From a virus, in the IMG/VR virus record IMGVR_UViG_3300045988_183942: a stretch of 53,299 bases of DNA; one strand, written 5' to 3'. Shown here piece after piece: positions 1,390 to 50,611 of the stretch. Below the pieces are notes generated by a model that was not told where the DNA came from, searched no databases, and saw only the letters and a list, made by a program, of their open reading frames with translations. The number at the start of each line of letters is the position of its first letter. The stretch's first letter is position 1. Position numbers and translations under genes: made by a program.

Positions 1390-2352
1390 ATGAATCTCGA
1401 TGAAGTAATAAGCAAAGTAGCAACTCATTCTGCAGAAATAGATGAGTTAAAAAAAACATTTCAACAAGTAAGTGATTATCCTAACGCAATGCAACTTGAA
1501 TACAGTAATGTATTGCAAACTAAAACTTTTGAAAATGCACCATTACTCAGATATTTGGAAAGTAAAGGGCAAGTATTTGATAATAAAGCAGCTCTTGTAG
1601 GATATTTTGAAGAAAAAAGAGAAGCTGATGATGTTAAATGGATTGGTGAATTAGATGATATTCCAGATGCAGCTCCTGAACAAATTGATGATGTAACTGA
1701 CAAAATGAAAGCATTAGTTGCACCCATCGAAGTTTCCATGATGGCGCAAATGGGTAATAAATATATTGATCTTCTTGCTCGTAGACAAGAAAAGAAATTC
1801 ATTGATGTTAATAATAAAACAGATAAAGCAATCCTTGAAGGAACCGGTGATAGTACTAGTAAAGATTTCAAAGGTATTTCTTCAACTATTAAATCACATA
1901 GTGAAGATTTAAAAGGAGCTCCTATTACTGAATCTATTATTGATGATATGCTTGAAGATTTAAATAATGATAACAGTAATCCTGATGTTATTGTTTGTAG
2001 TTATGGTGTTGCTAAACAATTAAAAGCATTAGTTGCACCTTATAGAAGATTTAACGATAAAGTGGATATTGGGCTTGGACATAGAGTTACTACATATGAA
2101 TCTATGTTGGGTACTGAATTACCTATTCTTGTAGACCGTAATTGGGATACTAGTAAAGGAGATAAATTAGCAATTATTGATTCTACTACCGTAGAAGTTA
2201 GAAGGTTAATGCCTCCTACTTTGATTACTGATTTGCCAGTGAATAAGTTAGCTTATAAGAATGTTGTTGCAGCATTTCTTACTATGTTGACTAATGGTGA
2301 GTTTAAAGATGGTTTGATTACTGGAATTGGTGCTGCTTCAGATTCTCCCTAA
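1390..2352 (+). CDS. Major capsid protein (HK97-fold expected)
   Basis: ATG at 1390 preceded by AAGAAGG. 320 aa. Lies between the protease and the head-tail connector genes. The track start at 1315 has no RBS. Confidence 0.6.
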   Translation: MNLDEVISKVATHSAEIDELKKTFQQVSDYPNAMQLEYSNVLQTKTFENAPLLRYLESKGQVFDNKAALVGYFEEKREADDVKWIGELDDIPDAAPEQIDDVTDKMKALVAPIEVSMMAQMGNKYIDLLARRQEKKFIDVNNKTDKAILEGTGDSTSKDFKGISSTIKSHSEDLKGAPITESIIDDMLEDLNNDNSNPDVIVCSYGVAKQLKALVAPYRRFNDKVDIGLGHRVTTYESMLGTELPILVDRNWDTSKGDKLAIIDSTTVEVRRLMPPTLITDLPVNKLAYKNVVAAFLTMLTNGEFKDGLITGIGAASDSP

Positions 2353-2602
2353 TCCTGGAGGAGATCCTGAAACATTTGATTTAACATTTAATGTGACTGA
2401 TGCAGATGGGGCTGTTGAAGGAGCTAGTGTAACTGTAGATAATAAGACATGTACTACTGGTAGTGCTGGATGTTGTACTATTAAAGGTGTGGCTAAAGGT
2501 GAACAAACTGTAGTTGTATCTAAAACAGGTTATAATGATTATTCTTCCAGTATTACAGTTTCCGCGAATGATACAGTTAGTGTTGTTTTAACTAAAGGAT
2601 AA
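2327..2602 (+). CDS. Ig-like/CarboxypepD_reg-like beta-sandwich domain ORF, probably a +1 frameshift extension of the capsid protein
   Basis: Overlaps the capsid gene end in the +1 frame. No RBS or ATG of its own. Sequence DLTFNVTDADGAVEGASVTV...GYNDYSSSITV resembles small decoration domains. Confidence 0.45.
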   Translation: MVLLQILPNPGGDPETFDLTFNVTDADGAVEGASVTVDNKTCTTGSAGCCTIKGVAKGEQTVVVSKTGYNDYSSSITVSANDTVSVVLTKG

Positions 2603-2652
2603 AAATTTGTTTTTATTCTATTTTTTTTAATTTTTGATGTGAGTTTATTTTT

Positions 2653-3198
2653 ATGATTGATGAAACAGATATTCAACAAATATTAAAAACAGATGGTTTT
2701 GAATTGTCTGATGATGATTTCCAATTGCTTTTGGAGATTGTTAAAAGTCAGATTAATCAAGGTTTAGATGTTCCTATTGAACCTGTTAGTTTTACTCAAG
2801 TTGAAAATGGTTTCAATGATGATAAATTATTAGTAGACATGTTTCCAATTGATGAAATTCATTCTCTAAAAATAGGGGATTCTATTTTAATTGAAGATAA
2901 GGATTATAATATTGATTATGATGATGGTATATTATATTTTAATAGAACTTACAATGGTTTTTTAAGGTTAGAATATAGTGCAGGATTAACTACACAAGAA
3001 TACTCAACACACATAGTACCTTTAATCATCAACATGTTAGAATACAATTTAGACAATAGCTGGGATAAAAACGCATCAAGCATTAAAGAAGGAGACATAA
3101 CAATAAGTTATGATACCAGTATTGGCCAAGGAGCTTTAATACAAAAAACATTAAACGATTTAAACAATCGTTACTCAACATACATAAGGATGCTCTAA
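2653..3198 (+). CDS. Head-tail connector (gp6-like)
   Basis: Position after the capsid gene. N-terminus (TDIQQILKTDGFELSDDDFQLLLEIV) is typical of gp6-like connectors. Confidence 0.45.
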   Translation: MIDETDIQQILKTDGFELSDDDFQLLLEIVKSQINQGLDVPIEPVSFTQVENGFNDDKLLVDMFPIDEIHSLKIGDSILIEDKDYNIDYDDGILYFNRTYNGFLRLEYSAGLTTQEYSTHIVPLIINMLEYNLDNSWDKNASSIKEGDITISYDTSIGQGALIQKTLNDLNNRYSTYIRML

Positions 3199-6439: not shown

Positions 6440-7174
6440 ATGGTCAGTGAACAAACAACCAAATTTTTATGGGATGTTAAATTCCCAAATGAATGCAAAG
6501 AATTACCTTATGATTATTTAACAGAATACGAGCAAATGTTAGTGGATAAATGTGTTAATCATGAAATATTCACCGAACAAGAACAAAAAGAATTAAAACA
6601 ATTACTACACGATTACAGACCATACTTCAAAAAATACAACACGGAAGTAGCAGAACAAAACATTGAAGCAACACAACAAATCGTGAAAACACAATCACAA
6701 CTACTTGAATTAATACATGACAAATCACAATATCGTATAGACATGAATTATTATATAAACGGTCAGAGATTCCTATTACAAATGAGGATAAAACCTTACA
6801 CTGACAAACAATACCTTGAAGGAATGGGTACACAAATGGGATTATTCCGTGATTTAACCCGTGATGAGAAAAAATTAATCGCAAAAGCAGAAACAAAACA
6901 ACCAATGAGTCCTGAAGAACATAAGATGTATCAGGCATTATCAGATAAAATCATGGAAAAAGCTTATGATTTAGATAACAATTTAAAAATCATCAATGAA
7001 TTTCTTGCAGACCGTATGGAATTCGTAGATGATCCTGAAAAAACTTTCGAAGAAAACCTCCAATTCTGGGAGCAAATAGATTTAGATACTAAAACAAGTT
7101 TATTCCATGAGGTCCGTGGCAGGTTAAAATTAAATGATACTTTCACGGAAGAATTATTTCCACCTGTTAGATAG
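6440..7174 (+). CDS. Tail assembly chaperone (gpG/XkdN-like position)
   Basis: Lies between the tube and tape measure genes. AAGGAG RBS. Confidence 0.5.
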   Translation: MVSEQTTKFLWDVKFPNECKELPYDYLTEYEQMLVDKCVNHEIFTEQEQKELKQLLHDYRPYFKKYNTEVAEQNIEATQQIVKTQSQLLELIHDKSQYRIDMNYYINGQRFLLQMRIKPYTDKQYLEGMGTQMGLFRDLTRDEKKLIAKAETKQPMSPEEHKMYQALSDKIMEKAYDLDNNLKIINEFLADRMEFVDDPEKTFEENLQFWEQIDLDTKTSLFHEVRGRLKLNDTFTEELFPPVR

Positions 7175-7358
7175 TTTTATCGGTGAAGTTTATTTCCGTG
7201 TTAGTAAACATTTAAGCATTCCTATCAGTGAAGTGATTTATAAAAGGAATGATTTAGATATTATGATGTTAATGCGGAAGTATGGTATGGAAATAAGACA
7301 CGAGCAAGAGCAAATCAGAGAATTAAACAAACAAAGAAGAAAAAATAATAGGTGGTAA
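7134..7358 (+). CDS. Second tail chaperone ORF (gpT-like), possibly a frameshift extension
   Basis: Overlaps the chaperone end by 41 nt in the +1 frame. Has no RBS. Ends at the tape measure RBS. Confidence 0.4.
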   Translation: MILSRKNYFHLLDSFIGEVYFRVSKHLSIPISEVIYKRNDLDIMMLMRKYGMEIRHEQEQIRELNKQRRKNNRW

Positions 7359-7363
7359 AAAGT

Positions 7364-10300
7364 ATGGCTACTGCTGAAGAAATAATGCTAACATTTTTCG
7401 GAAAAGATGAAGTAAGTAATGTTGCAAAAAACATAGATAAAAATGTTCAAAGCATGGGTAGTCGTGCTTTAACTGCCGGAAACGATATTAACTCTGGTTT
7501 ACTACAGGTAAGTTCTGGTTTAGACAGTATGGTGTCTAAAGTAAATGGTGGGAAAACCGCAATGGACAACATCTTCGGAACAAGTAGTAAAGCAGAAACA
7601 AATAGTGTACTATTGAAAATGATGAGTAGTACAAGTGAAGCTGCAAGTAAATTAAATCAGCATGTTGATGATGTTACTAACAGTAGTCTTGTTAGTATGC
7701 AAAGTTTAATTCCTGCAATGAATGCTTTCAAAACCGCGACAGGTGCAACAGACCAACAGATTTATGATGCTACAGAAGCAATGGCTGGTTTTGGTGCAAA
7801 AGTTTTAGCACAAACTGGAAGTACTGAGTTAGCAGAAACTGCAATGATGGATTTAAGTAAAGGTATTAAAGGAGCTTGTGCAAGTCTTGACCAATATGGA
7901 ATCACTGTTGATGCTTTAAAAAGTACTGGTTTATGGGATGGTGATGAAAATGATATTGAAGGTTATATGGCGGCAGTACAACAATTAACTGGTGATACTA
8001 AAGAGTTAATGGAAACTAATGAAGGTTTAGATAAGCAATTGGAGAAACAGTTCAGTAGTGCTGGTAAAAAATTAGGTAATGAATTCCTACCTGGAATTAA
8101 AGATGCTAAAAGAGCATTAATTGATTTGAACAAAGCAAGTGGAGGTACTCTATTCGCAGGAATACTCGGAATTACTGCTGTTGCGGATACGGCTAGTACA
8201 TGGGGTCAAACTATCACTAATGTAGCTAACGGTGTTAAAAATTTACAGGAAGGTGCGGGTAAATTAAAAGATATTTGGAATGGTGTGACATCTGCAGTTA
8301 AAGGTACTGCGGCTGCTGTTGAAGGTGTTGCTGATGCAACTAATACTGTTAGTAATGTGTCAGATATTGCTGCAGGAGGAGCACAAGTAGCTGGTGGAGT
8401 AACAGAAAGTAAAGCCAGTATTGGAGCCACAGGTGCGGAAGTAGGATTAAGTGCATTTGATGCATTGAAAAAGGATAATGATAAATATCGTAAAGAGGCA
8501 GGAACCTTATTAAAGGATTTGGAAAAAAATGGAGAATTAGGAAACAAAGTACAAAACACTTCCAACAAGGTATACTCAAAAGATTTGTTTAAAAGTCCTG
8601 AAGGGATAAAAGGTCAATTTAGTGATGGTTGGGATTCTAGCATTGTTAATAAGATAAAAAATTATTCTAAAAGTCAGGAAGAAATTTCAGATGCATTAGA
8701 TACTGCTATTGATGGTGTTGATATTGTAGCAGATAAAAGTAAAGATATGAAAAAATCTGGACAAGCAATGGAAGGTTTGGGTGAAGTTGCAGGTATGATA
8801 CCTGCAGGAGTTGGTGCAGAAGCTGCGGCAGGAGCAACTGAAGCAACAGCAGCAAGTGCAGGATTATCCGGATTGGGAGCAAGCATATCCTCGATGTTAG
8901 CACCATTATTAACTATTGCAGCAGTAGTGGCAATAATGATTCCTGTAGTTGTTGCATTAGCTGCAGAAGCATTAATCTTTATAAGAGCATTAGCAGAAGT
9001 ATTTAAAGCATTAAACTTCGATAAACTGGATTTAAGTGGAGATATTGATGGTTTGAAACAAATAGGTGCTGCAATATGGGAATTATGTAAAGCAATGGCG
9101 GCAGTAGTAGCAACTTCATGGTTAACAATGGTTTACCAAGGAATATCTGCAATAATGTTATTTAACGATCCAATTAAAGTTGCTGTTGATGAGTTGAAGA
9201 AAACTGCAACATTGGTTAAAGGATTCGCAGACATAACTATTCCTGAAAATGTTCCAAGTAATCTTCAAGCATTAAGCACAAGTCTTGGAGCAGTTGCTAA
9301 AGCAATGTGGAGTCTTGAAAGTGTTGGAGTATCAGTATTAGCAGGAAGTGTACTAACCTTAAATGGTTATTTAGGAACCTTATCACAGAACCTTGCAATA
9401 GCTAAAAAAGAATTAACAGAATCAGCTAAACAAATCAACAGTATGAGTGACTTGGACACTATTGATGATGGTGTAGCAAGCAAATTAGAAGCTGTAACAT
9501 CATCTTTAGCAAATGTAGGGAAAGCAATGGGAGCATTATCTGATGTTAATTGGGACATTAACATGGGAAACATTGTAAACCTTGGAGGAGCATTTGGAAC
9601 AATCACAAGCCACTTGGAAGATGCTAAAGATGAAATCATCAAAGCAGCACCTGTTATCAACCAATTCAGTAGCCTGCCGGATATTGATCAATCTGCAGGT
9701 GAGAAACTTAAAAAAGTTTCAGATGGAATTAAAAATGTTGCCGATTCATTGAAAAGTTTAAACAGTTTATCAAGCAGTATGGGTGGAGATAATGGTGCAT
9801 TAGGAACAATCCTTAAAAAATTACAACTTGGTGAAAGTATCCGTGCAGCTAAATCTGCTTTAACTGACGCTGCAAAACAATTACAAGGTTTAAATGATTT
9901 ACCTGACATTCCTGATGGTATTAAAACAAAATTGTCCAAAATAGGAAGTACAACTGCAACTGTAATCAATACATTAAAACCTTTAACAAATATTCAGAAT
10001 ATGAATGTGAATAGTGCAAGTATTGCAAGTAAAGTTGCACAAGCAAGATATGCGATAAGTAATAGTGCAATACATCTCGCAAGTTTATCTGGCATTAGCA
10101 CAATACCTGATGATATTCCTACAAAATTATCTAAAGTAGGCAGTACAGCCGCAACTTTGATTAACACTTTAAAACCATTAACAAGTATTGCAAATAGTGA
10201 AGTAAACGCAGGAGCAATTAATACTAAAGTTGCACAAGCAAGATATGCAATCAGTAATGCTGCAACACATATTGCAAGTTTATCAGGTATCAGTACAATA

Positions 10301-11269
10301 CCTGAAAATATTGGTGAAACCTTAAATCGTGTAAGTACAAGTGCAAGACAAGTAGCAACTGCAGCAACTAACCTAAATACCATACCAGTAGTAACTGCCA
10401 CTTCCGCGAATATCATGTTAGCCGTAACTGCGATTAAAACTGCGATAATGCAGTTAAACAGTCTTGCAGGAACAACATTAAATGGGGGTATTGGAGCATT
10501 GTTAACAAGTGTTACAAATGCTTTAAATCAATTAAAAACCACTTTATATGCAATGAGTGGAGGATTCTATAGTGCGGGAGCGAACATAGGATTATCAATT
10601 GTAAATGGCGTGAATACTGGATTAGCACCATTATCTAGCATCACTATCGCTCGTGTAGCCTCAGCAACAAACAGTGCCGTAGGAACTGGAAGAAGTGGAG
10701 GGGCAAAAGTAGGTCAAGCAGTAACACAAGGATTCAAACAAAACTTGAAAATGGCTCAAGCAATGAAACAAGAAATGAGTTATGTAACACAAGCAGTAAA
10801 CAATGGGATAAGTGCAGCTAAAACTGCAGCACGTAATGGGGCACAAGATGTTGTAGCTGAATTTAAAAGAGGTATTGAAACAGGTTCACCTGGGGCTATG
10901 GCATGGGCTACTTATGATGAAATGAATTATATTAATGATTTCATAGTATCAGAAGGTAAAAATGTTGTGGCAAGTGCTAAAAGATTAGGGCAAAATATTG
11001 TAACTGGTTTTGGCAATCCAAGTTTAAATGTTGGTTTAGGAAGTGTTCCTACTGATTATAATCTTGAACAATTACACGGAATGGGAACATTAACTTCAAC
11101 TGCACAATGGGGTAAAAGTACACAGAATGTTGAATTACATATTCATGAAGGTGCAGTACAATTAGATACAAGGAACTTAACTACACGTGAAAGTAAGCAA
11201 ATCATGATTAATGCACTTGAAGGATTAGATGCTGTAACAAATATTAACATAAAAGGAATAGGGGCATAA
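7364..11269 (+). CDS. Tail tape measure protein
   Basis: 1301 aa, Ala/Gly/Ser-rich with central hydrophobic segments and internal tandem repeats. ATG at 7364 is 8 nt after AGGTGG. Confidence 0.85.
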   Translation: MATAEEIMLTFFGKDEVSNVAKNIDKNVQSMGSRALTAGNDINSGLLQVSSGLDSMVSKVNGGKTAMDNIFGTSSKAETNSVLLKMMSSTSEAASKLNQHVDDVTNSSLVSMQSLIPAMNAFKTATGATDQQIYDATEAMAGFGAKVLAQTGSTELAETAMMDLSKGIKGACASLDQYGITVDALKSTGLWDGDENDIEGYMAAVQQLTGDTKELMETNEGLDKQLEKQFSSAGKKLGNEFLPGIKDAKRALIDLNKASGGTLFAGILGITAVADTASTWGQTITNVANGVKNLQEGAGKLKDIWNGVTSAVKGTAAAVEGVADATNTVSNVSDIAAGGAQVAGGVTESKASIGATGAEVGLSAFDALKKDNDKYRKEAGTLLKDLEKNGELGNKVQNTSNKVYSKDLFKSPEGIKGQFSDGWDSSIVNKIKNYSKSQEEISDALDTAIDGVDIVADKSKDMKKSGQAMEGLGEVAGMIPAGVGAEAAAGATEATAASAGLSGLGASISSMLAPLLTIAAVVAIMIPVVVALAAEALIFIRALAEVFKALNFDKLDLSGDIDGLKQIGAAIWELCKAMAAVVATSWLTMVYQGISAIMLFNDPIKVAVDELKKTATLVKGFADITIPENVPSNLQALSTSLGAVAKAMWSLESVGVSVLAGSVLTLNGYLGTLSQNLAIAKKELTESAKQINSMSDLDTIDDGVASKLEAVTSSLANVGKAMGALSDVNWDINMGNIVNLGGAFGTITSHLEDAKDEIIKAAPVINQFSSLPDIDQSAGEKLKKVSDGIKNVADSLKSLNSLSSSMGGDNGALGTILKKLQLGESIRAAKSALTDAAKQLQGLNDLPDIPDGIKTKLSKIGSTTATVINTLKPLTNIQNMNVNSASIASKVAQARYAISNSAIHLASLSGISTIPDDIPTKLSKVGSTAATLINTLKPLTSIANSEVNAGAINTKVAQARYAISNAATHIASLSGISTIPENIGETLNRVSTSARQVATAATNLNTIPVVTATSANIMLAVTAIKTAIMQLNSLAGTTLNGGIGALLTSVTNALNQLKTTLYAMSGGFYSAGANIGLSIVNGVNTGLAPLSSITIARVASATNSAVGTGRSGGAKVGQAVTQGFKQNLKMAQAMKQEMSYVTQAVNNGISAAKTAARNGAQDVVAEFKRGIETGSPGAMAWATYDEMNYINDFIVSEGKNVVASAKRLGQNIVTGFGNPSLNVGLGSVPTDYNLEQLHGMGTLTSTAQWGKSTQNVELHIHEGAVQLDTRNLTTRESKQIMINALEGLDAVTNINIKGIGA
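9911..10390 (+). repeat. 195-nt (65-aa) tandem repeat inside the tape measure gene, about 2.5 copies
   Basis: Unit starts cctga... at 9911, 10106 and 10301. Peptide KLSK[IV]GST.AT.INTLKPLT...KVAQARYAISN recurs. Confidence 0.85.
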
Positions 11270-19955: not shown

Positions 19956-22280
19956 ATGAAAGAATGCCCACCAGTTTATAAAAATCTTGGTTTAATGAGT
20001 TTTGATGAACAAAGAGAAGTAACTGTGCAAATGTTGCGTCAAATATGTAAAAATGATGAATGGTTAAAACAAAACCTTGAAAAAATTGAATATCTCACTC
20101 CAGCAGCTATTAGAAAAAGATTCACACCAATCCCTGTTGATAAAAGTAATAGTTATGGTTATAAAATCACATCTGATAATAATGTGATTTTTGATACTGC
20201 TACTGATAAAGAAGTGCAAGTAAACTTTGAAGATGACAGCCTTATTGATTTAAGTAAAACAACTTGTTTAATTGAAGCTATAGAACAAGATGGTAAAATT
20301 ATACATCAAGCAAAAGTTCCACAACTAGTTAATTCCACTATTGATAAATCCACGAGAAATTACAGCCCCTGGGCTGTTAAAGATTCCTCAGGGAATATTA
20401 TTGGTGGGGATATGACTGCAAATGAACATTGGTATATTGGTTTTGACCGAAATAGACATTATGAAACAAGACCTAACTGGTTAGAAAACCAATTAAACAA
20501 TGAAATACCAAGTATTGGAAGAGCACAAACATTTAAAGCAAAGAAAACTGGTTTACTTGAATCCATCGTACTGAATATAAAAGCAAGCGCTGGTGAAGAT
20601 AAATATAATACTGCATCACCTTTAATCGTACAAATAAGAAAAACAATAAATAAAGATGGAGTATTATATCCTGAAGAATTGGCTTGCGGGTATGATGGAA
20701 AATATACTGTACTCGCTCAACAGGAAGTAAGATTCCAAAACAGTAGCCCTGACATTGCAAGTATATTATTTGACCACCCATGCACTGTTAAAAAAGGTGA
20801 AACATACGCAATAGTCTTACTATCGCCATTATCCCACTATAGTCACTGCTATTGGTTAGGAGGCTGGAACAAACACTGCCATGCAGATGTATACACAGAT
20901 GGAAATGCATTTTACACATTCAACAATGGTATGACCTGGATACGGTATGGGAAAGATGATGATGTTGAATATCATCAGGGAAAATATGCTCCACAAGATT
21001 TTGCATTCCAAGCTCATATTCGTGAGTTTAAAACTGGTTATGATAAAAATAAAGATTATTGGTTGTATTTATCACCTATTTTTAGCAATCCTATTAAATC
21101 AATATTCATTTCTGCTGATGACACGGGTGATGTAAATGATCAAAAACTTCAATGTGAATATCAGGTCAGTAATAATGGTAGAGATTGGATTACTGTAGGA
21201 GATAGCCACAAAGTTGATTTTGATAGTAACAATCTTCGTAATGTTGTTTTTGTCCGTGCAAGATTGAAAACAACCGTGGATAATGCTTCACCATTAATTG
21301 AAAATATTACTATTTATTTAAGTACTGATATTCCAGATGAAATGTATGTCCGTACACATTATTATCACCCAAAAACTGCAGCTATGCTTGGAGCTAATGT
21401 TTGGGGTCGTGTAAATGCACCATTTAATGTTGAACCAACAGTTACATGCACTGCAGAGATAATAAGGGATAAAGAAGTAACCGAACATTTCATTATCATT
21501 GAACCAAAAGATGTTGAAAATTTCACTTGGATTGAGGGCATATCTGAAGATAAATTTAAAAACATTTCAAATAATAAAGCTCATGCTTATCTTAAAGAGA
21601 ATCAATCTATTATTGAATTATTAAAGCAACAACAAGTATATGTTACAGGATTCACTGATAATGCTGGAGTTTATCAAGAAGGTTTCTTTGACAGATTATA
21701 TTTTGTTTCCAGTCCCGCTTATCCTATGTTAAATTGTAGCTTACAACCAAATACTGGAGAAACAGTAGTTTACGGTGAATGGTATGATTATCATGTTGAT
21801 TATGATAATGATGAATTAATATTTTATGATGATGTTTTAAAAAACATGCCTACAGGTACATTTAATATTGTTTATAATCCATTGTTTATTGACCGTTTAA
21901 ATGATAGTGAAATGCCATTAATATTAGATTATTTCAAAGAAACAATTGAAGTAACTGAAACACATTTAGAATCAAGAAGAATACCTTTAAGAACTGCACC
22001 AGTAGACCCAATCCGTAAAGTAGTTTTAAATCCATCATCAGATAACACTGAACTAATAGAAGATGTTGATTTCACAATCGATTATAATACTCATGAATTA
22101 GTCTTTGACATAATAAACAATAATGATAAATCAACATTACTTAAATTGAATGATATTATTACAATTGTTTACACACCAAACCTTGATGATTCAGGGATAA
22201 GTGTAGGATATTACGCTAAAAGAGAAAATATTCGTAAGCAATGTTATATTAAACCGAATTATATTGAGTACAAAACATAA
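19956..22280 (+). CDS. Large tail/receptor-binding protein with discoidin (F5/8 type C)-like segment
   Basis: 774 aa. YQVSNNGRDWITVGDSHKVDFDSNNLRNVVFVRARLK resembles the terminal strands of discoidin-type carbohydrate-binding domains. Confidence 0.4.
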   Translation: MKECPPVYKNLGLMSFDEQREVTVQMLRQICKNDEWLKQNLEKIEYLTPAAIRKRFTPIPVDKSNSYGYKITSDNNVIFDTATDKEVQVNFEDDSLIDLSKTTCLIEAIEQDGKIIHQAKVPQLVNSTIDKSTRNYSPWAVKDSSGNIIGGDMTANEHWYIGFDRNRHYETRPNWLENQLNNEIPSIGRAQTFKAKKTGLLESIVLNIKASAGEDKYNTASPLIVQIRKTINKDGVLYPEELACGYDGKYTVLAQQEVRFQNSSPDIASILFDHPCTVKKGETYAIVLLSPLSHYSHCYWLGGWNKHCHADVYTDGNAFYTFNNGMTWIRYGKDDDVEYHQGKYAPQDFAFQAHIREFKTGYDKNKDYWLYLSPIFSNPIKSIFISADDTGDVNDQKLQCEYQVSNNGRDWITVGDSHKVDFDSNNLRNVVFVRARLKTTVDNASPLIENITIYLSTDIPDEMYVRTHYYHPKTAAMLGANVWGRVNAPFNVEPTVTCTAEIIRDKEVTEHFIIIEPKDVENFTWIEGISEDKFKNISNNKAHAYLKENQSIIELLKQQQVYVTGFTDNAGVYQEGFFDRLYFVSSPAYPMLNCSLQPNTGETVVYGEWYDYHVDYDNDELIFYDDVLKNMPTGTFNIVYNPLFIDRLNDSEMPLILDYFKETIEVTETHLESRRIPLRTAPVDPIRKVVLNPSSDNTELIEDVDFTIDYNTHELVFDIINNNDKSTLLKLNDIITIVYTPNLDDSGISVGYYAKRENIRKQCYIKPNYIEYKT

Positions 22281-31410: not shown

Positions 31411-32553
31411 TTATCTTTTTTTGAATTTATCTAAAACATTACATAACCCATCATCAAACAACATTTCCTCAATAGCAGACAACCTATTATTCATAGTCTT
31501 CACTTCAACCTCTTTTTCCTGATATTTACCTTCTAACTCCAGATATTCTGGAGATTTGTAAGTAATATTATTCCAATTAATCATTAAACAATCAAGATGA
31601 TTAATATATTCTTCACGGAGTTTTTCAGGATCTTCCATAAAATAACTACTGTGCGTTGCATCTTTTCCTCTGCCTTGTAGAGCATCTACAAATTCGATAC
31701 TGCAATTATCGTTGAATAATTGGCTTGCATGGAATTTACGAAGCATATGGGGTCTAAATCGGATGTATGTTCCTTTTTTGCCTAATCCTAATTTATTGTT
31801 TAATTGTTCAAAAGATATGCTTGTGTAGTTTTCAGTTAAATTAAATAGTTTATCAGTGTTTTTTAAATCACGATTTGATGAAATAAGATAATTAATTATT
31901 TCTGATGTAGATTCTGGTGATGAAAAGGTTGTGTAAAATTTATTGGTTTTAGGACGTCGAAGTTCCCAAGTAGGAACTACATCTTTTTTGTCTTTAAGTA
32001 CATTTAATACATCGTAAATATTATTTTCTTGATGATATTGTTTAGTAGCATCTATAAAATTTTGTATTGTGAAATTTAATGTTTCTATTCTACTACAACC
32101 GCTGCTGCTGATAAAGAGGATTATTGCTCTCATTCGAGTGTTACTGATGTCTAATGCTTTTTTAATGATTTCATGGTCTGGTAAATCTTTAAATGTGATG
32201 GGTTTGTTTTGGTTAACATTTTTCATAGAATAGATTGGGAGTTGGTGGATTTCAATATCGTAATGTTTGTAGATGGTTAATATTTTTGAGAACATTATTC
32301 TTGCAGATCCAACAAGGTAATTTTCATAAATATATGATCTATAGTTCATTAATCTTTTTTTTAATGTACGATTTTTCCAACGAATGCCTTGTTCTTCTTC
32401 TTTTTCTGCTTCTTGTATGAGGTCTACTAATGATTTTTGTTGATATTGTGTGTATGTTTTAATATAACTTTTGTATACATTTATTGTTGTTTGTTTGAGG
32501 TTTCGGGATTTTGCAAAATCAGTTAGCAATTCTTTATCATTTTTCATATACAT
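31411..32553 (-). CDS. int: Tyrosine recombinase/integrase
   Basis: 380 aa. SSGCSRIETL (Arg box), HMLRKFHAS (HxxR-type box) and a C-terminal ...ATHSSYF Tyr region. Confidence 0.7.
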   Translation of the reverse strand: MYMKNDKELLTDFAKSRNLKQTTINVYKSYIKTYTQYQQKSLVDLIQEAEKEEEQGIRWKNRTLKKRLMNYRSYIYENYLVGSARIMFSKILTIYKHYDIEIHQLPIYSMKNVNQNKPITFKDLPDHEIIKKALDISNTRMRAIILFISSSGCSRIETLNFTIQNFIDATKQYHQENNIYDVLNVLKDKKDVVPTWELRRPKTNKFYTTFSSPESTSEIINYLISSNRDLKNTDKLFNLTENYTSISFEQLNNKLGLGKKGTYIRFRPHMLRKFHASQLFNDNCSIEFVDALQGRGKDATHSSYFMEDPEKLREEYINHLDCLMINWNNITYKSPEYLELEGKYQEKEVEVKTMNNRLSAIEEMLFDDGLCNVLDKFKKR

Positions 32554-45881: not shown

Positions 45882-46448
45882 ATGCCACCAAAGCCTAAAG
45901 TAGAAGTGTCACCTCATTATGATGAAATTATTGATTTATTATTGGATGGTAAAAGTTCAAGGGAGGTTTCTGCTTATTTGAAGAAGGAATATGGTGAGGT
46001 TATTGGGCATAATGCTATTAGTAATTATAAACGTAATCATATGAAATTAGAGGAGAAAGTGGAGGCTGAAGCTAATAGGTTGTTAGCTAAGAAAACTGCT
46101 GAAGTGGTTGATGATAGTGTTAAGAAGAAAGCTGAAACTATTGTTGATGTTGAATTGGAAACTCAAACTGTAGCTAGTCAAAGTGCAGAATTATTAATCG
46201 GTTTGCATAAAGTAGCTTCAGATTTCCCAGAGGATTATAGGCGGATGAAAGAAGCTGCTGAATATGATGATTCAAGAGTAACTTGGAAAGATGTTGCTAA
46301 TATGAGTTTGCAAGCAAACAAAATTTCTAATGATTTCTTGAAAAATACTGATGTTAATGTTAATGTTGAGAATAATAATTTAACAACTTATTTTGATGAA
46401 GAAAAAATAAGGAATATTTTATATGCTAAGCGAGAAAGAAATAAGTGA
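45882..46448 (+). CDS. terS: Terminase small subunit
   Basis: HTH-like SSREVSAYLKKEYGEVIGHNAISNY. Directly upstream of and overlapping terL. ATG at 45882 is 9 nt after GGAGG. Confidence 0.55.
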   Translation: MPPKPKVEVSPHYDEIIDLLLDGKSSREVSAYLKKEYGEVIGHNAISNYKRNHMKLEEKVEAEANRLLAKKTAEVVDDSVKKKAETIVDVELETQTVASQSAELLIGLHKVASDFPEDYRRMKEAAEYDDSRVTWKDVANMSLQANKISNDFLKNTDVNVNVENNNLTTYFDEEKIRNILYAKRERNK

Positions 46449-47799
46449 AATCTTAAATGATTTATATCTTTTTTATCGTGTTTTCATCACATCAAAATAT
46501 GAAACAGATGTTGAAGCTCCACACATTGATAAATTATCAGAGGAGTTAACTGCTTTAACTTTAGGTGAGTATGAACGTTTGTGTGTTGCAATGCCTCCAA
46601 GGCATTCCAAATCATCTATGGTTACTTTAGCTTATCCTTTATGGTTAATATTCCAAAACCCACATCTTAATATTCTTATAGTTTCTAATGAAGCAAGCTT
46701 AGCAGAAACATTTGGTATTAAACTAAGAGAATACATTAAAAAATATGGAGCATACTTCGGAGTACACCTATCAGAATCAAAACACAGCAGTACTCATTTA
46801 ATGTTCGAAGACAAAAAGGGTTTAGCAGGAAGTATTAAACTAGTAGGAGCTAATGGTTCTATTACGGGTAGAGATGCAGACTACATTATCATAGATGACC
46901 CGTATAAAGGATTTGAGGATATCACACCAACATTACTGCAAAAAAGGATTGATTGGTTTGACATTATTATTGAACAAAGAATAGAATCCCATACCAAACT
47001 AGCTATACTGCACACTCGTTGGCATAGTAATGATTTGCAAGGTTATTTTAAAAAGAACCGTAGTGAAGATTATCATTTCATAAGCTTCCCAGCAATCAAG
47101 GAAAATGGTGAACAATTATGGCCTGAAAAATATACGATTGAAAAATTGGAAAAGAAAAGGGAATCTATTGGTGAGCGATTATTCCAATCTATTTTTCAAC
47201 AAAAACCAATAGATGATACCAGTGATTTCTTCGATTTAAACAAATTTCATTGGCAGGCCCCTCCAAAAGAATTAACAACCATTCAAATGTGTCGTGGATG
47301 GGATGTAGCTTCAAGTGACCCTGGTAAAAATGATTTCACAGCAGGAGTACCTATGTACCTGTTAAACGATAATAAATCTATACTTATAACTGATTTTGTT
47401 CATGGGCAATTTGGTAAAGACACAAGTCAAAAAATAAAAAATCAGATAATACTTGATGGACATGATAATATTTCAATAATTGAAACTGGAGTAGCTGCTG
47501 CAGGGGCACTACTCTATGATAACTGGGAGCAACAATTACCAGGATACTTCCTGGAAAGAGCCATACCCGTACCAAATAATAGTAAAGCAGACCGAGCAAC
47601 ACCACTGAAAGATTATATTTACGATGGACATGTATATGTTGATATTAAGGATAATAATCTCCGTAAAATATTCCAAGATGAATTTCGTGCATTTCCTAAT
47701 GGAGAACATGACGATATTGTTGATGCAACTGCACATGTATTCAATTATATTAACCAAGAATTTATTGGGAATGATATCTTTGAAATTGTGGAAATATAA
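46423..47799 (+). CDS. terL: Terminase large subunit
   Basis: AMPPRHSKSS (Walker A variant P.RhGKS), YIIIDDP (Walker B) and a C-terminal nuclease-like region. Confidence 0.75.
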   Translation: MLSEKEISEILNDLYLFYRVFITSKYETDVEAPHIDKLSEELTALTLGEYERLCVAMPPRHSKSSMVTLAYPLWLIFQNPHLNILIVSNEASLAETFGIKLREYIKKYGAYFGVHLSESKHSSTHLMFEDKKGLAGSIKLVGANGSITGRDADYIIIDDPYKGFEDITPTLLQKRIDWFDIIIEQRIESHTKLAILHTRWHSNDLQGYFKKNRSEDYHFISFPAIKENGEQLWPEKYTIEKLEKKRESIGERLFQSIFQQKPIDDTSDFFDLNKFHWQAPPKELTTIQMCRGWDVASSDPGKNDFTAGVPMYLLNDNKSILITDFVHGQFGKDTSQKIKNQIILDGHDNISIIETGVAAAGALLYDNWEQQLPGYFLERAIPVPNNSKADRATPLKDYIYDGHVYVDIKDNNLRKIFQDEFRAFPNGEHDDIVDATAHVFNYINQEFIGNDIFEIVEI

Positions 47800-47832: not shown

Positions 47833-49113
47833 ATGGGATTTTTTAACAACATCAAAAAAAGCATAATGAAACTACCCGGACTACGAAACCCTGAAGACGA
47901 TTCATTACTCTATGAATTCATGAACAATTACCATTGGGCATTCACACAAGCCAACAAAGACACAGGCGACCTACAAACATATTATGACTCATATAATAAT
48001 GTTTTTGTTAAATCATGCATTAAAGCATACATCAGATACAGCCTAATAAACGGATTCACCATTACCAACAATTATGGTGAAGAAGTAAATCCCATAACAG
48101 CTAATTACTTAAATAACTTATTCAATGATCCTCAGGGAAAATTAAGAGCAGATACATTTGCAACACTCAATGATTTAATATGGAAATCATGGAAATTAAC
48201 AGGAGACTGTTTTATAGAAGTTAACCATAAAGAAAATTATGGCAACATACCTATTGGTTTTAAACATATACCTACAGAGTTAATCTGTTATCATAATGAT
48301 ACTAGCCAATGGGGTCTTCGTAATACAGATTACAGGTTTGAAGATGATGAAATAATACATATATATGAACCTAGACCCGAAGCTAAAAACTATCTATGGG
48401 GTATTAGTGAAATAGACAGTATTGGATTATCTATTGCATTAGAATTCAGTGGTTTAAAACATAACAAAGAAATGTTTGATAACAGCGGAATGGATCCACG
48501 AGGAATATTATCATTTGATAAAGAAACAAGTAATGTAAGTATTCAATCTTTTATTAACAGAATGAAGCAAGATAAAAATAAAAAAGGTTTGCTTACAGTT
48601 AAAGGAGCTACTTATCAAAGCACAGGTAATAATAACCGTGATTTGGATTTCCTTAACTTATTAAATTATAGTCGTGATCGTATATTAATTGGTTTTCAAG
48701 TGCCTCCTGCTGTGATAGGCATTGTTGAAACAGCACATTTAGGTAGTGGTACAGGGGATAGTCAAGAAAAATCTTTTAATAATACTTTGTCTGGGGATTG
48801 TAAGATTATTGAAAATGCTTTTAATAAAGTATTAGGCAGGTCTGGGTTTAAAGAGGTTTTTGAGTATAACCATATGGATTTGGAGAATAAGTTGACTCGT
48901 GCTCAGATAGAGGATATTCAGTTGAAGAACGGTGTTAAGTCTATTAACGAGGTTCGTTTGGATTATGGTTTGAATCCTGTGGATTGGGGTGATTTACCTT
49001 TAAATCAAGAGTTAACAATGTCACCTAACATGGGCAATGGTAATTATAGTACTGAGGTTAAGAGTTTAGAAAAAGCTTTAACCATGGAAAGATTACGCAA
49101 GGAGTACCAGTAA
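47833..49113 (+). CDS. Portal protein
   Basis: 426 aa, lying between terL and the MuF-like gene. AAGGAG RBS. Confidence 0.65.
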   Translation: MGFFNNIKKSIMKLPGLRNPEDDSLLYEFMNNYHWAFTQANKDTGDLQTYYDSYNNVFVKSCIKAYIRYSLINGFTITNNYGEEVNPITANYLNNLFNDPQGKLRADTFATLNDLIWKSWKLTGDCFIEVNHKENYGNIPIGFKHIPTELICYHNDTSQWGLRNTDYRFEDDEIIHIYEPRPEAKNYLWGISEIDSIGLSIALEFSGLKHNKEMFDNSGMDPRGILSFDKETSNVSIQSFINRMKQDKNKKGLLTVKGATYQSTGNNNRDLDFLNLLNYSRDRILIGFQVPPAVIGIVETAHLGSGTGDSQEKSFNNTLSGDCKIIENAFNKVLGRSGFKEVFEYNHMDLENKLTRAQIEDIQLKNGVKSINEVRLDYGLNPVDWGDLPLNQELTMSPNMGNGNYSTEVKSLEKALTMERLRKEYQ

Positions 49114-49114
49114 T

Positions 49115-50611
49115 ATGGTGTCAGTTGAAAGAATTAAAACTAATCATATGCTCCTTGATGATTTAGGTTTATGGGATGAGTTTAGAATAAATAAAACACG
49201 CGATTCTTCAGTAGTTCAAAGATATTATAATCTTTTAAAAGAGCTTATTGATAATCAATTATCTTCAACTAAAAGTTGGTTAAATACGACTGAAGCAAGA
49301 AATTATTTCTTTAATGGGGCGAAATATCAAAGAGAAGTATTTTCTGCACTTGAAGAGGATTTAGATGAACTACTTGAAAAAAATTATTTTAGTATTGATT
49401 CATTACTTGAAGATATATATCAAAGAGGAAAACAAAAAGGTTACTTGGATATAAAATCTAAACAACGTTTCACACAAGCAGATAAATTAGCATTGCAATT
49501 TGCTAAAGATTATAATCATGGACTTGTGAGGAATCTTTCACGTGATTTAAGACATACAGTTAAAAATGAAATATTTAAAGGAGTTATAGCTGGGGAAAAT
49601 CCTCATGAAATTGCAAGAAGATTGTTAAAAGTTGGGGTGCAACCTTTAAAAAACACCACATTCACACCATTGCAAAGAGCAACATTAATAGCTAAAACAG
49701 AAGTAAGTAGAGTACAAAATACAGGAATACTCCAATCATATGCAAATGAAGGCTACACAGAAGTTAAAATTTTAACTGCAGAAGATAATAATGTTTGTAC
49801 TACATGTTTAAAGTATGCATATGAATTTAACAAAAATGAGAATGTAATCTTTGATAATCATGGGGAAGAAAAAACTCATAAAATAGAAGATATTCTTGGA
49901 TTAATACCATTTCATCCAAATTGTAGATGTACAGTCACAGCAGTATGGGAAACCAAAGGGGAACCTCCTGAAAACCCGATTGTAACAAATTTAACTGAGG
50001 ATAATAATTTCAACAGATATATTATAGATAATGGGAAGTTATATCCTATTGTTGGAAATACTCATAAAGGAAGATTAGATTTTGAAATGGATTGTGGTGT
50101 TTTTGCAGATAATTTAACAGAAGAAGAATTAGAATTCATAAGATTATACACTAAAAAGGGAGACTCAATTCTAAACTTTTATTTAAGAGGACTACAATCT
50201 CCAGATAGAAACCCAAAACAAGAATGGAAAAATTTGGTTAAAGAAAGAGAGGTTGATATTTCTTTTGAGAGGGCTTTAGAATTAGTTAGAATGGTATTTA
50301 ATAAAGGTATAGTACTTAATGAACCATTAGTGTTAATTAGAAGAGAAAATAATAGGTACATGAAAGTAGAAGGTAATAAAAAAGTTTATTCTGATAAAGG
50401 TATTCTTTCAACATCTATAGGTGAAAATGTTAAATCTGATGTTTATGGTGATGAACTTAATTATATTTTAGTTCCTGCAGGAACAAAAGTGCTATATGTT
50501 GAAGGAATTACAGCAACTCAAGGTGATTTTGAGGTGATGTTGCCTCCAGGTTCTAATTTAGAATATATTAAAGATATTGGAGCTCATGCTAAAGTATGGA
50601 AACTTCAATAA
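49115..50611 (+). CDS. Head morphogenesis protein (SPP1 gp7/Mu F family) fused to a C-terminal ADP-ribosyltransferase-like toxin domain
   Basis: IAKTEVSRVQNTG ... VCTTCLKY ... FHPNCRCTV (MuF). C-terminal YTKKGDSILNFYLRG, LIRRE, GILSTSIG and GDFEVMLPPGSNLEYI (R-STS-[D/E]xE pattern). Confidence 0.65.
   Translation: MVSVERIKTNHMLLDDLGLWDEFRINKTRDSSVVQRYYNLLKELIDNQLSSTKSWLNTTEARNYFFNGAKYQREVFSALEEDLDELLEKNYFSIDSLLEDIYQRGKQKGYLDIKSKQRFTQADKLALQFAKDYNHGLVRNLSRDLRHTVKNEIFKGVIAGENPHEIARRLLKVGVQPLKNTTFTPLQRATLIAKTEVSRVQNTGILQSYANEGYTEVKILTAEDNNVCTTCLKYAYEFNKNENVIFDNHGEEKTHKIEDILGLIPFHPNCRCTVTAVWETKGEPPENPIVTNLTEDNNFNRYIIDNGKLYPIVGNTHKGRLDFEMDCGVFADNLTEEELEFIRLYTKKGDSILNFYLRGLQSPDRNPKQEWKNLVKEREVDISFERALELVRMVFNKGIVLNEPLVLIRRENNRYMKVEGNKKVYSDKGILSTSIGENVKSDVYGDELNYILVPAGTKVLYVEGITATQGDFEVMLPPGSNLEYIKDIGAHAKVWKLQ

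Follow-up and report, generated by a model that had tools for sequence, protein, structure and literature searches.

The virus sequence IMG/VR IMGVR_UViG_3300045988_183942, a single stretch of 53,299 nucleotides (nt) referred to here as the window, was analysed around the gene encoding its major capsid protein (MCP). Comparison of this gene with its relatives indicates that a programmed +1 ribosomal frameshift at a "shifty stop" probably gives some of the MCP molecules an additional small beta-sandwich domain. The virus is a Methanobrevibacter virus, identified as Somnumvirus timidum (Caudoviricetes sp. vir080; genome of 53.3 kb), a member of the family Pigerviridae in the order Methanobavirales, with whose "major head protein" (YP_013605374.1) its MCP shares 100% identity; annotated close relatives are present in Methanobrevibacter metagenome-assembled genomes. 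In public records, the locus appears as a 320-amino-acid (aa) MCP and a separate 90-aa "hypothetical protein" corresponding to the +1 open reading frame (ORF), as gene callers split them. The elements of the locus are as follows:

1390..2352, plus strand: MCP ORF in the 0 frame, starting at ATG 1390, with 320 codons and TAA; 35.5 kDa; HK97 / SU10-type fold
2318..2350, plus strand: overlap zone in which the 0 and +1 frames are both open, holding the +1-frame TTG 2327 and GTG 2330
2344..2352, plus strand: putative shift cassette TCT CCC TAA, with a Ser codon for the E site, a rare Pro codon for the P site and a stop codon for the A site
2351..2602, plus strand: extension ORF in the +1 frame, with 83 sense codons and TAA (2600-2602); 8.3 kDa
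2351..2371, plus strand: flexible linker NPGGDPE, continuing the last MCP residues DSP
2372..2599, plus strand: transthyretin-like / carboxypeptidase-regulatory-like beta-sandwich domain

The MCP ORF, which matches Pfam SU10_MCP (expect value, E, 1.6e-21) and the PHROG major head protein family and has the SU10 capsid protein 7z48_D as its best Foldseek match, ends with GCT TCA GAT TCT CCC TAA (2335-2352). The ending GAT TCT CCC TAA at 2341-2352 and the open +1 frame across it had been claimed in an earlier note on this DNA, and both are read directly from the sequence. Positions 2318 to 2599 are free of stops in the +1 frame, and 2318-2350 is the sole stretch in which this frame and the 0 frame are both open, so any change of frame must fall there; in other lineages, the corresponding zone measures 23-59 nt and always ends at or just past a CCC. 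In the window, the +1 codon overlapping CCC (2347-2349) is CCU (2348-2350) and the next is AAU (2351-2353), the third most used codon of the window. CCC itself is rare, accounting for 20 of the 469 Pro codons (4.3%) and for 1.25 per 1000 codons, and one of 69 ORFs in the window ends in CCC_stop. Two other ways of passing the end of the gene were considered and rejected: after stop-codon readthrough, the 0 frame meets TGA five codons past TAA, and a -1 shift at the junction would enter the +2 frame, which is open for just 10 codons. As a separate observation, the hexamer CCCTRA is if anything under-represented in the window (17 found, 27.6 expected, with at least 17 in 97 of 100 shuffles), and the capsid copy alone sits in frame at the end of a gene.

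Beyond the junction, the earlier note had counted 84 more codons; the long open run to 2602 stands, with 83 sense codons, the figure of 84 including the stop. The probability that an 83-codon run would be open by chance in the +1 frame of this genome, which has a GC content of 30%, is about 5e-4. Across the extension region, its own frame contains no stop, while the 0 frame contains 18 and the +2 frame 6, and GC content at third codon positions (GC3) is 0.08, similar to the 0.15 of the MCP. The ratio of nonsynonymous to synonymous divergence (dN/dS) of the extension was below 1 in 21 of 21 pairwise lineage comparisons (0.33-0.99), and below 0.7 in 17 of these. The encoded domain carries a conserved core, TGTTGxAGGC. 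Pfam matches were obtained for CarboxypepD_reg (E 1.7e-10) and PEGA (E 3.8e-9); AlphaFold2 predicted an all-beta structure with a predicted local distance difference test score (pLDDT) of 92-95; and Foldseek retrieved the transthyretin-like domains of carboxypeptidase N/D (2nsm, 5aq0, 1qmu) with a root-mean-square deviation of 2.4-2.9 A over about 80 residues, as well as CnaB2 and the SusC N-terminal extension. The structural check proposed in the earlier note thus returned a confidently folded all-beta domain, and its description as a small beta-sandwich was borne out; according to Pfam and Foldseek, the fold is transthyretin/prealbumin-like and not the classical immunoglobulin (Ig) fold that had been suggested. 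The predicted junction reads ...AASDSP|NPGGDPETFDL..., giving a fusion product of 403 aa and 43.8 kDa, in which the linker residues 318-324 have a pLDDT below 50; linkers of the x-E-G-N-P-E-T type recur in both frameshifted and in-frame relatives. The domain is presumed to be displayed on the capsid surface, where, by likeness to the Ig-like decorations of gut phages, it would probably act as an adhesion or glycan-binding module.

Two further observations concern the domain itself. In the window, Cys stands where every relative has Gly (TCTTGSAGCC, compared with TGTTGSAGGC; around 2450 and 2474), and these Gly-to-Cys differences leave three cysteines in the conserved loop. The same domain also occurs as 2-23 tandem copies in proteins of 500-4800 aa (P0166-P0310). 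An origin of the viral domain from host adhesin-like proteins was considered, but the named tandem-repeat carriers are bacterial (Mesotoga InlB-B-repeat / Ig-like proteins).

To place the junction among its relatives, 87 loci were gathered from viral, metagenome, and genome collections and from contigs encoding protein matches. In the conservation check proposed in the earlier note, the nine nucleotides TCT CCC TAA/TGA are identical in five MCP lineages, and in all five they are followed by an open +1 ORF of 83 or 106 codons encoding the same domain family. Relative to the window MCP, these lineages show identities of 92-100% (group A, which includes the window), 90% (group B), 83% (L020/L081), 81% (L082), and 78% (L084), with a synonymous divergence (dS) between MCP genes of 0.47 to more than 2. 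Their extensions share only 29-60% amino-acid identity, and the ORF is open in every relative that carries it, at amino-acid divergences of 40-70%. The codons just 5' of TCT CCC differ (GAT, AAT, ACT, GCT, GAA, TCA), only 9 of 66 conserved four-fold columns keep an unchanged codon across the five lineages, and of the 11 conserved Pro columns none but the terminal one is CCC in all five. Six of seven MCP genes compared contain no CCC apart from that at the junction; the window gene has a second one at codon 112. The +1 codon following the predicted slip is GAU in group B and AAA in L082, respectively the fourth and first most used codons of the window.

Two more distant types of relatives carry the domain in the +1 frame behind a CCC that precedes a sense codon. 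In the L023 type (L023, L030, L052, L054, L057; 72% MCP identity), the junction is ACY CCC AGC AAC GGA TGA, with CCC three codons before the stop, and in L037/L038 (45% MCP identity) it is GAT CCC AGT CCT TGA, with CCC two codons before the stop; in both, CCC still lies within the overlap zone. These CCC_AGY lineages suggest, at the level of sequence, that +1 slipping may be independent of the stop. In every case, the P-site tRNA would again meet a cognate codon in the +1 frame, namely CCU where CCC precedes a stop and CCA in the CCC_AGY lineages. Among 44 distinct junctions, a CCC lies within the last five codons in 17 of 17 with a domain ORF and in 0 of 27 without one (Fisher 1.5e-12, with no correction for phylogeny). 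L080, a relative with 86% MCP identity that has lost the domain, ends in TCC CCA TAG, so that Ser-Pro is kept and the shifty codons are gone. Overall, the domain is in frame in four lineages, out of frame in seven, and absent in at least ten. A neighbour-joining tree of MCPs unites the CCC_stop lineages in one clade with two in-frame fusions and two lineages devoid of the domain, which indicates that domain loss and frame conversion are recurrent, and the mosaic proteins P0122 and P0127 demonstrate that junctions and domains recombine between lineages. In the protein clusters, the MCP has 491 members and the extension ORF 158, with single members of the latter cluster found on up to 363 contigs.

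The in-frame fusions provide a natural counterpart to the predicted product. The MCP and the domain form one ordinary protein in four lineages, represented by P0012 (404 aa, on a single contig), P0021 (locus L078; 419 aa, in four independent runs), P0178 (413 aa), and P0246 / P0313 (417 aa, from a Methanobrevibacter sp. genome). The closest comparison is that of L078 with group B. The L078 junction, ACC CCC ATA ACT GAG GGG AAT CCT GAA, is the same as the group-B junction, TCT CCC TGA TAC TGA GGG GAA TCC TGA A, minus one nucleotide, and the fusion join falls exactly at CCC. Owing to this one-nucleotide difference, the predicted slip product ...SP-DTEGNPET... is colinear with a real protein, ...TP-ITEGNPET.... 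The homologues, checked for two outcomes that the earlier note would have counted against its proposal (an independent gene for the domain, or the lack of an open +1 frame), came out in its favour; none of the relatives collected has the domain as a free-standing gene. The one candidate for such a gene, P0130, was rejected, as it is a Usuviridae-type -1 extension called from an internal codon.

According to the proposed mechanism, peptidyl-tRNA-Pro would be positioned on the rare CCC (2347-2349) with UAA in the A site, where termination would be slow relative to sense-codon decoding. On a minority of ribosomes, tRNA-Pro would un-pair and re-pair one base further on, at CCU (2348-2350), the new A-site codon AAU would be read quickly because it is among the most used codons of the genome, and translation would continue for 83 codons in the +1 frame. 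Two capsid proteins would thereby arise from one gene, the 320-aa MCP (35.5 kDa) and a 403-aa form, MCP-L (43.8 kDa), which would co-assemble so that the domain decorates the capsid exterior below full occupancy. The shift would be stimulated by the stop codon and the rare CCC, together with the proline at the C-terminus and perhaps the conserved TCT on the 5' side, with 3' RNA structure seemingly uninvolved. The junction peptide FKDGLITGIGAASDSPNPGGDPE (GluC digest) would arise only from a shift at CCC_U. The slip from CCC to CCU fusing the domain to the MCP, as the earlier note had put forward, is favoured by the invariant TCT CCC TRA, by the association of CCC with the domain, and by the in-frame fusions.

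Several points weigh against a programmed shift. No downstream RNA structure beyond that of shuffled controls was detected in seven lineages (fold z-scores of -1.7 to +0.5), and the RNAalifold consensus 3' of the site in the five-lineage alignment was essentially empty. In the CCC_AGY lineages, the A-site codon would be a sense codon with no evident cause of slowness, AGT being common in the window. The association of CCC with the domain is inflated by shared ancestry, since the junctions represent about seven independent lineages with the domain and about ten without it. Both the occurrence and the efficiency of the slip on an archaeal ribosome are inferred. Moreover, every lineage has start-type codons (TTG/GTG, and ATG in L081 and L082) in the +1 frame at a distance of 11-23 nt from the stop, on its 5' side, and their Shine-Dalgarno (SD) energies, at -4.3 to -7.5 kcal/mol, overlap those of real genes (median -5.6), the MCP itself scoring -4.3.

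These last points bear on separate or coupled initiation, which is the sole serious rival and which we judge unlikely. Here, the 90-aa ORF would be translated alone, from TTG 2327 or GTG 2330 (ATG in some relatives) or by coupled re-initiation, yielding a free decoration protein bound non-covalently to the capsid. The earlier note had argued that the downstream ORF has neither an ATG nor a ribosome-binding site of its own; there is indeed no ATG in the window, but TTG 2327 (-4.8 kcal/mol) and GTG 2330 (-4.5 kcal/mol) have SD scores overlapping those of real genes, and the argument from a missing ribosome-binding site was therefore dropped. L082 even places GGAG 6 nt before its +1-frame ATG, and gene callers report the extension ORFs as proteins of 87-102 aa. 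Against this, the start-like codons are by-products of the MCP motif G-I/V-G-(D) (ATT GGT G.., GGT GAT GA) and occur equally in domain-less relatives. Separate initiation also leaves unexplained why TCT CCC stop is invariant beside a variable MCP tail, why the rare CCC tracks the domain perfectly, and why the stop always abuts CCC; it predicts a hydrophobic leader, LVLLQILP..., that has no counterpart in the four in-frame fusions, and its free product would be a bare beta-sandwich without a capsid-binding part.

A second alternative, far less probable, is that the extension is a decaying remnant of an ancestral in-frame fusion that was broken by a 1-nt insertion, the domain no longer being made. 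Such a history would agree with the in-frame fusions of related lineages, which lie one nucleotide off the frameshifted junction, and with the domain-less relatives, whose capsids can manage without it. It is difficult to reconcile with an ORF that at least seven lineages, separated by saturating synonymous divergence, keep open over 83-106 codons, and that combines a conserved core with dN/dS below 1 and the GC3 of coding sequence, while the other two frames of the region carry the 18 and 6 stops mentioned above; in addition, lineages that truly lack the domain have deleted all of it and have lost CCC as well.

The least probable alternative is a change of frame at the nucleic-acid level at this short homopolymer (CCC), either by transcriptional slippage, for which a run of only three C's is far shorter than the runs that support polymerase slippage, or by a sequencing or assembly error in the C-run, against which stands the same out-of-frame layout with two different stop codons in 17 distinct junctions. 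The 158-member extension-ORF cluster, single members of which occur on up to 363 contigs from independent samples and assemblers, excludes assembly error. Transcriptional slippage and ribosomal frameshifting are handled as separate processes in a review of the field (PMC5009743).

The sequences on either side of the predicted +1 shift site were also searched for stimulators and signals, and the features concerned are as follows:

2357-2367, plus strand: purine-rich SD-like tract GGAGGAGATCC, conserved 3' of the site
2365-2373, plus strand: invariant block TCCTGAAAC, 13 nt past the stop and identical in all CCC_stop lineages
2603..2652, plus strand: T-rich spacer (T5, T8, T5 runs) from the end of the extension to the next gene

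A scan of the whole window at Rfam gathering thresholds gave 0 matches. An upstream SD stimulator like that of prfB was considered and rejected as not general, since GGTGAT lies 6 nt 5' of CCC in three lineages and is absent from groups A and B. A virus-encoded tRNA-Pro was also looked for as a possible driver of the shift, and the genome was found to be without any tRNA genes. Downstream, the tract GGAGGAGATCC, seven nt past the stop, matches the complement of the assumed archaeal 16S rRNA 3' end at 10 of 11 positions, and other lineages have weaker purine tracts (GAGGGG, GGGA, GAGG) at that position; a stimulator of the prfB type would have to lie on the other side of the site, and the 25 nt that follow the tract contain no in-frame start codon. 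The block TCCTGAAAC is also found in L004, L081, L082, L084, L037/38, and the in-frame fusion L078, and the P0122 and P0127 mosaics switch parentage there. It could represent the protein motif P-E-T, a recombination joint for domain swaps, or a frameshift signal. No T-run comparable to that of 2603-2652 was found between the MCP stop and the extension, and the T-rich spacer is a possible archaeal oligo-T terminator closing a transcript that comprises both the MCP and the extension. In domain-less relatives such as L024-L031 and similar loci (MCP about 70% identical), the capsid gene ends in ...G-D-G-E TAA, and AATTCTCC with a T-run follows within a few bases; a terminator-like element thus stands directly after the capsid gene in those loci, while comparable T-runs occur in the window only past the extension (2603-2640).

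When compared to known systems, the window site most resembles the shifty stops of phages infecting Gram-positive bacteria. CCC_UGA and CCC_UAA are proven +1 shifty stops in bacteria: CCC_UAA operates in the tail tube gene of Bacillus phage SPP1 (gp17.1/gp17.1*) and in Lactococcus phage Q54, and CCC_UGA in the tail gene tsh of Listeria phages PSA, A118, and A500 (PMC3082878; PMC5009743), while E. coli pheL, with CCC_UGA, gives 15% shifting (PMC3082878). Listeria is likewise of low GC content, with CCC representing 5% of its Pro codons (PMC5009743). The window site shares with these phage examples a rare P-site CCC followed by UAA or UGA, a +1 codon CCU, low genomic GC with CCC at about 4-5% of Pro codons, and, as a prediction in the window, a longer minor form of a virion protein with a C-terminal beta-sandwich, no 3' structure being needed at stop-type sites. 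It differs in that the bacterial cases are proven by protein analysis, while ours is deduced for an archaeal virus, and in that the site lies in a capsid gene and not, as in the cited stop-type sites, in tail genes. Termination would involve the archaeal aRF1 in the window virus, in contrast to RF1/RF2 in the Gram-positive phage cases, and the appended domain is transthyretin-like (CarboxypepD_reg), whereas those of the Gram-positive phages, SPP1 among them, are of the FN3/Ig type.

The precedent of Listeria phage PSA, which the earlier note had invoked for both capsid and tail, holds for the CCC_UGA shifty stop of the tail gene; the capsid gene cps uses a different site, ACA_CCC_UCC with a 3' pseudoknot, to produce a C-terminally extended capsid protein by a +1 shift (PMC5009743). 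The slip proposed for the window would, like that of cps, be a +1 shift on CCC within the gene of a major capsid protein, and the sense-codon site of cps is resembled by the CCC_AGC and CCC_AGT of the L023 and L037 types. Unlike cps, the window has a stop as the A-site codon, and no lineage shows a detectable pseudoknot or other conserved 3' structure. Coliphages T7/T3 (10A/10B) and Lactobacillus phage A2 also make two capsid proteins per gene, with the longer minority form bearing a surface domain, but, being bacterial phages, do so by -1 shifts at heptanucleotide sites. In the wider pattern of Ig-like domains that phage structural proteins acquire by frameshifting, related phages may have the domain out of frame, in frame, or not at all, and this interchange has been taken as domain mobility (PMC5009743), and the P0122/P0127 mosaics and the MCP tree reveal the same lability as that of phage Ig-like domains. 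In haloarchaeal tailed viruses, G/GT frameshifting has been reported or predicted for the tail assembly chaperone, being -1 and, in HSTV-2, probably +1 (PMC5009743; PMC7911831). Archaeal ribosomes are accordingly expected to perform programmed shifts on viral mRNAs; the haloarchaeal examples differ in concerning a tail chaperone gene, other sites, and other hosts, with no CCC_stop and no capsid gene.

The nearest comparison by host is that of MSTV1, a siphovirus by electron microscopy with a genome of 38.8 kb. For the MSTV1-like viruses of Methanobrevibacter (Usuviridae), Baquero et al. (2024) proposed in silico that a programmed -1 frameshift at A AAG GAA in the MCP gene adds an "Ig-like" domain, which is fused in frame in the relative vir272 (PMC11375127). 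MSTV1 and the window virus share the host genus, the order Methanobavirales, the use of the MCP gene, a predicted minor form with a C-terminal domain, and in-frame fusions among relatives, and both frameshifts are known in silico only. The families differ (Usuviridae for MSTV1 and Pigerviridae for the window), as do the shifts, -1 on A AAG GAA two codons before the stop in the former and +1 on CCC_UAA in the latter. The motif A AAG GAA/G, with the domain in the -1 frame, is present in MSTV1 (PP537965; L086) and in L087, and is not present at the end of the window MCP gene, where the domain is in the +1 frame. The two MCPs have no detectable similarity (BLASTP E 0.91), and a tblastn search with the window MCP over a phage collection that included MSTV1 returned no match, as did a search with the window DNA. 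The window site therefore lacks the features that define the MSTV1 type (direction, motif, and MCP homology) and by its sequence fits the CCC_stop type of bacterial phages, save that the long +1 ORF would depend on upstream initiation only if the start-type codons before it are not used. The appended domains, by contrast, are homologous: that of MSTV1 (-1 frame, 20420-20713) shows 40% identity to the window extension (E 2e-7) and 48% to the L084 extension (E 3e-12), and both match CarboxypepD_reg. Two capsid lineages that are unrelated in sequence thus appear to have acquired the same mobile domain, one through a +1 and the other through a -1 frameshift.

A literature search, which did not cover the first report of vir080 (Medvedeva et al. 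2023), returned no description of a +1 capsid frameshift in an archaeal virus, and no mention of Pigerviridae or Somnumvirus was found in the literature searched. The novelty claimed in the earlier note for a +1 event in an archaeal virus capsid gene is uncontradicted in the searchable literature and is narrower than stated, given the -1 proposal for MSTV1 (PMC11375127). The type of site, its purpose, and the domain are already known, and recoding in capsid genes of Methanobrevibacter viruses has been proposed before. New are the candidate +1 CCC_stop mechanism in an archaeal host, its clade-wide conservation with natural variants, and the apparent link to the MSTV1 domain.

As for the remainder of the genome, the window looks like a complete, circularly permuted genome of a temperate tailed virus, with the following genes recognised:

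267-1340: prohead protease / scaffold gene, upstream of the MCP gene
2653-3198: head-tail adaptor gene, downstream of the MCP gene, starting at ATG 2653 (PHROG head-tail adaptor)
31411-32553, minus strand: integrase
46423-47799: terminase large subunit
47833-49113: portal
49115-50611: minor head protein

A second overlapping pair occupies the tail-chaperone position just 5' of the tape measure gene (7352-11269). Its ORFs, 6440-7174 and 7134-7358, are in a +1 relation and not the classic -1; the second ORF, of 74 aa, can start at an ATG of its own (7134), preceded by AGGT at about 10 nt, and the only obvious candidate for a +1 slip in the 41-nt overlap is UUU_C (7157-7160).

The host genus is dominant among human-gut methanogens, and the practical value of the finding lies mainly in annotation and in a tractable model site, with no new principle involved. 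If the frameshift is real, a joined coding sequence would correct the annotation of hundreds of related gut and rumen virus contigs and would offer a concrete protein for glycan- or mucus-binding tests. Archaea terminate translation with a eukaryote-like release factor, and we know of no +1 programmed shift that has been shown experimentally in archaea. The finding, if true, would thus extend the CCC_stop device of bacterial phages to the archaeal translation apparatus, and the natural series of CCC_stop, CCC_AGY, in-frame, and lost junctions would constitute a ready mutant set for studying termination by aRF1 against slippage in the P site. More broadly, and more tentatively, it is possible that Methanobrevibacter ribosomes shift +1 efficiently on CCC beside both stop and sense codons (CCC_AGY), and that at least two virus families repeatedly use recoding, +1 in Pigerviridae and relatives and -1 in Usuviridae, to show one mobile transthyretin-like adhesion domain sub-stoichiometrically. 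Were such efficient shifting on CCC true, no earlier programmed +1 frameshift of an archaeal ribosome in a capsid gene would have been documented. If the frameshift itself is confirmed, the grafting of the same domain onto two unrelated capsid lineages by opposite frameshifts would indicate that partial decoration of the capsid is strongly selected in the gut, probably for adhesion.

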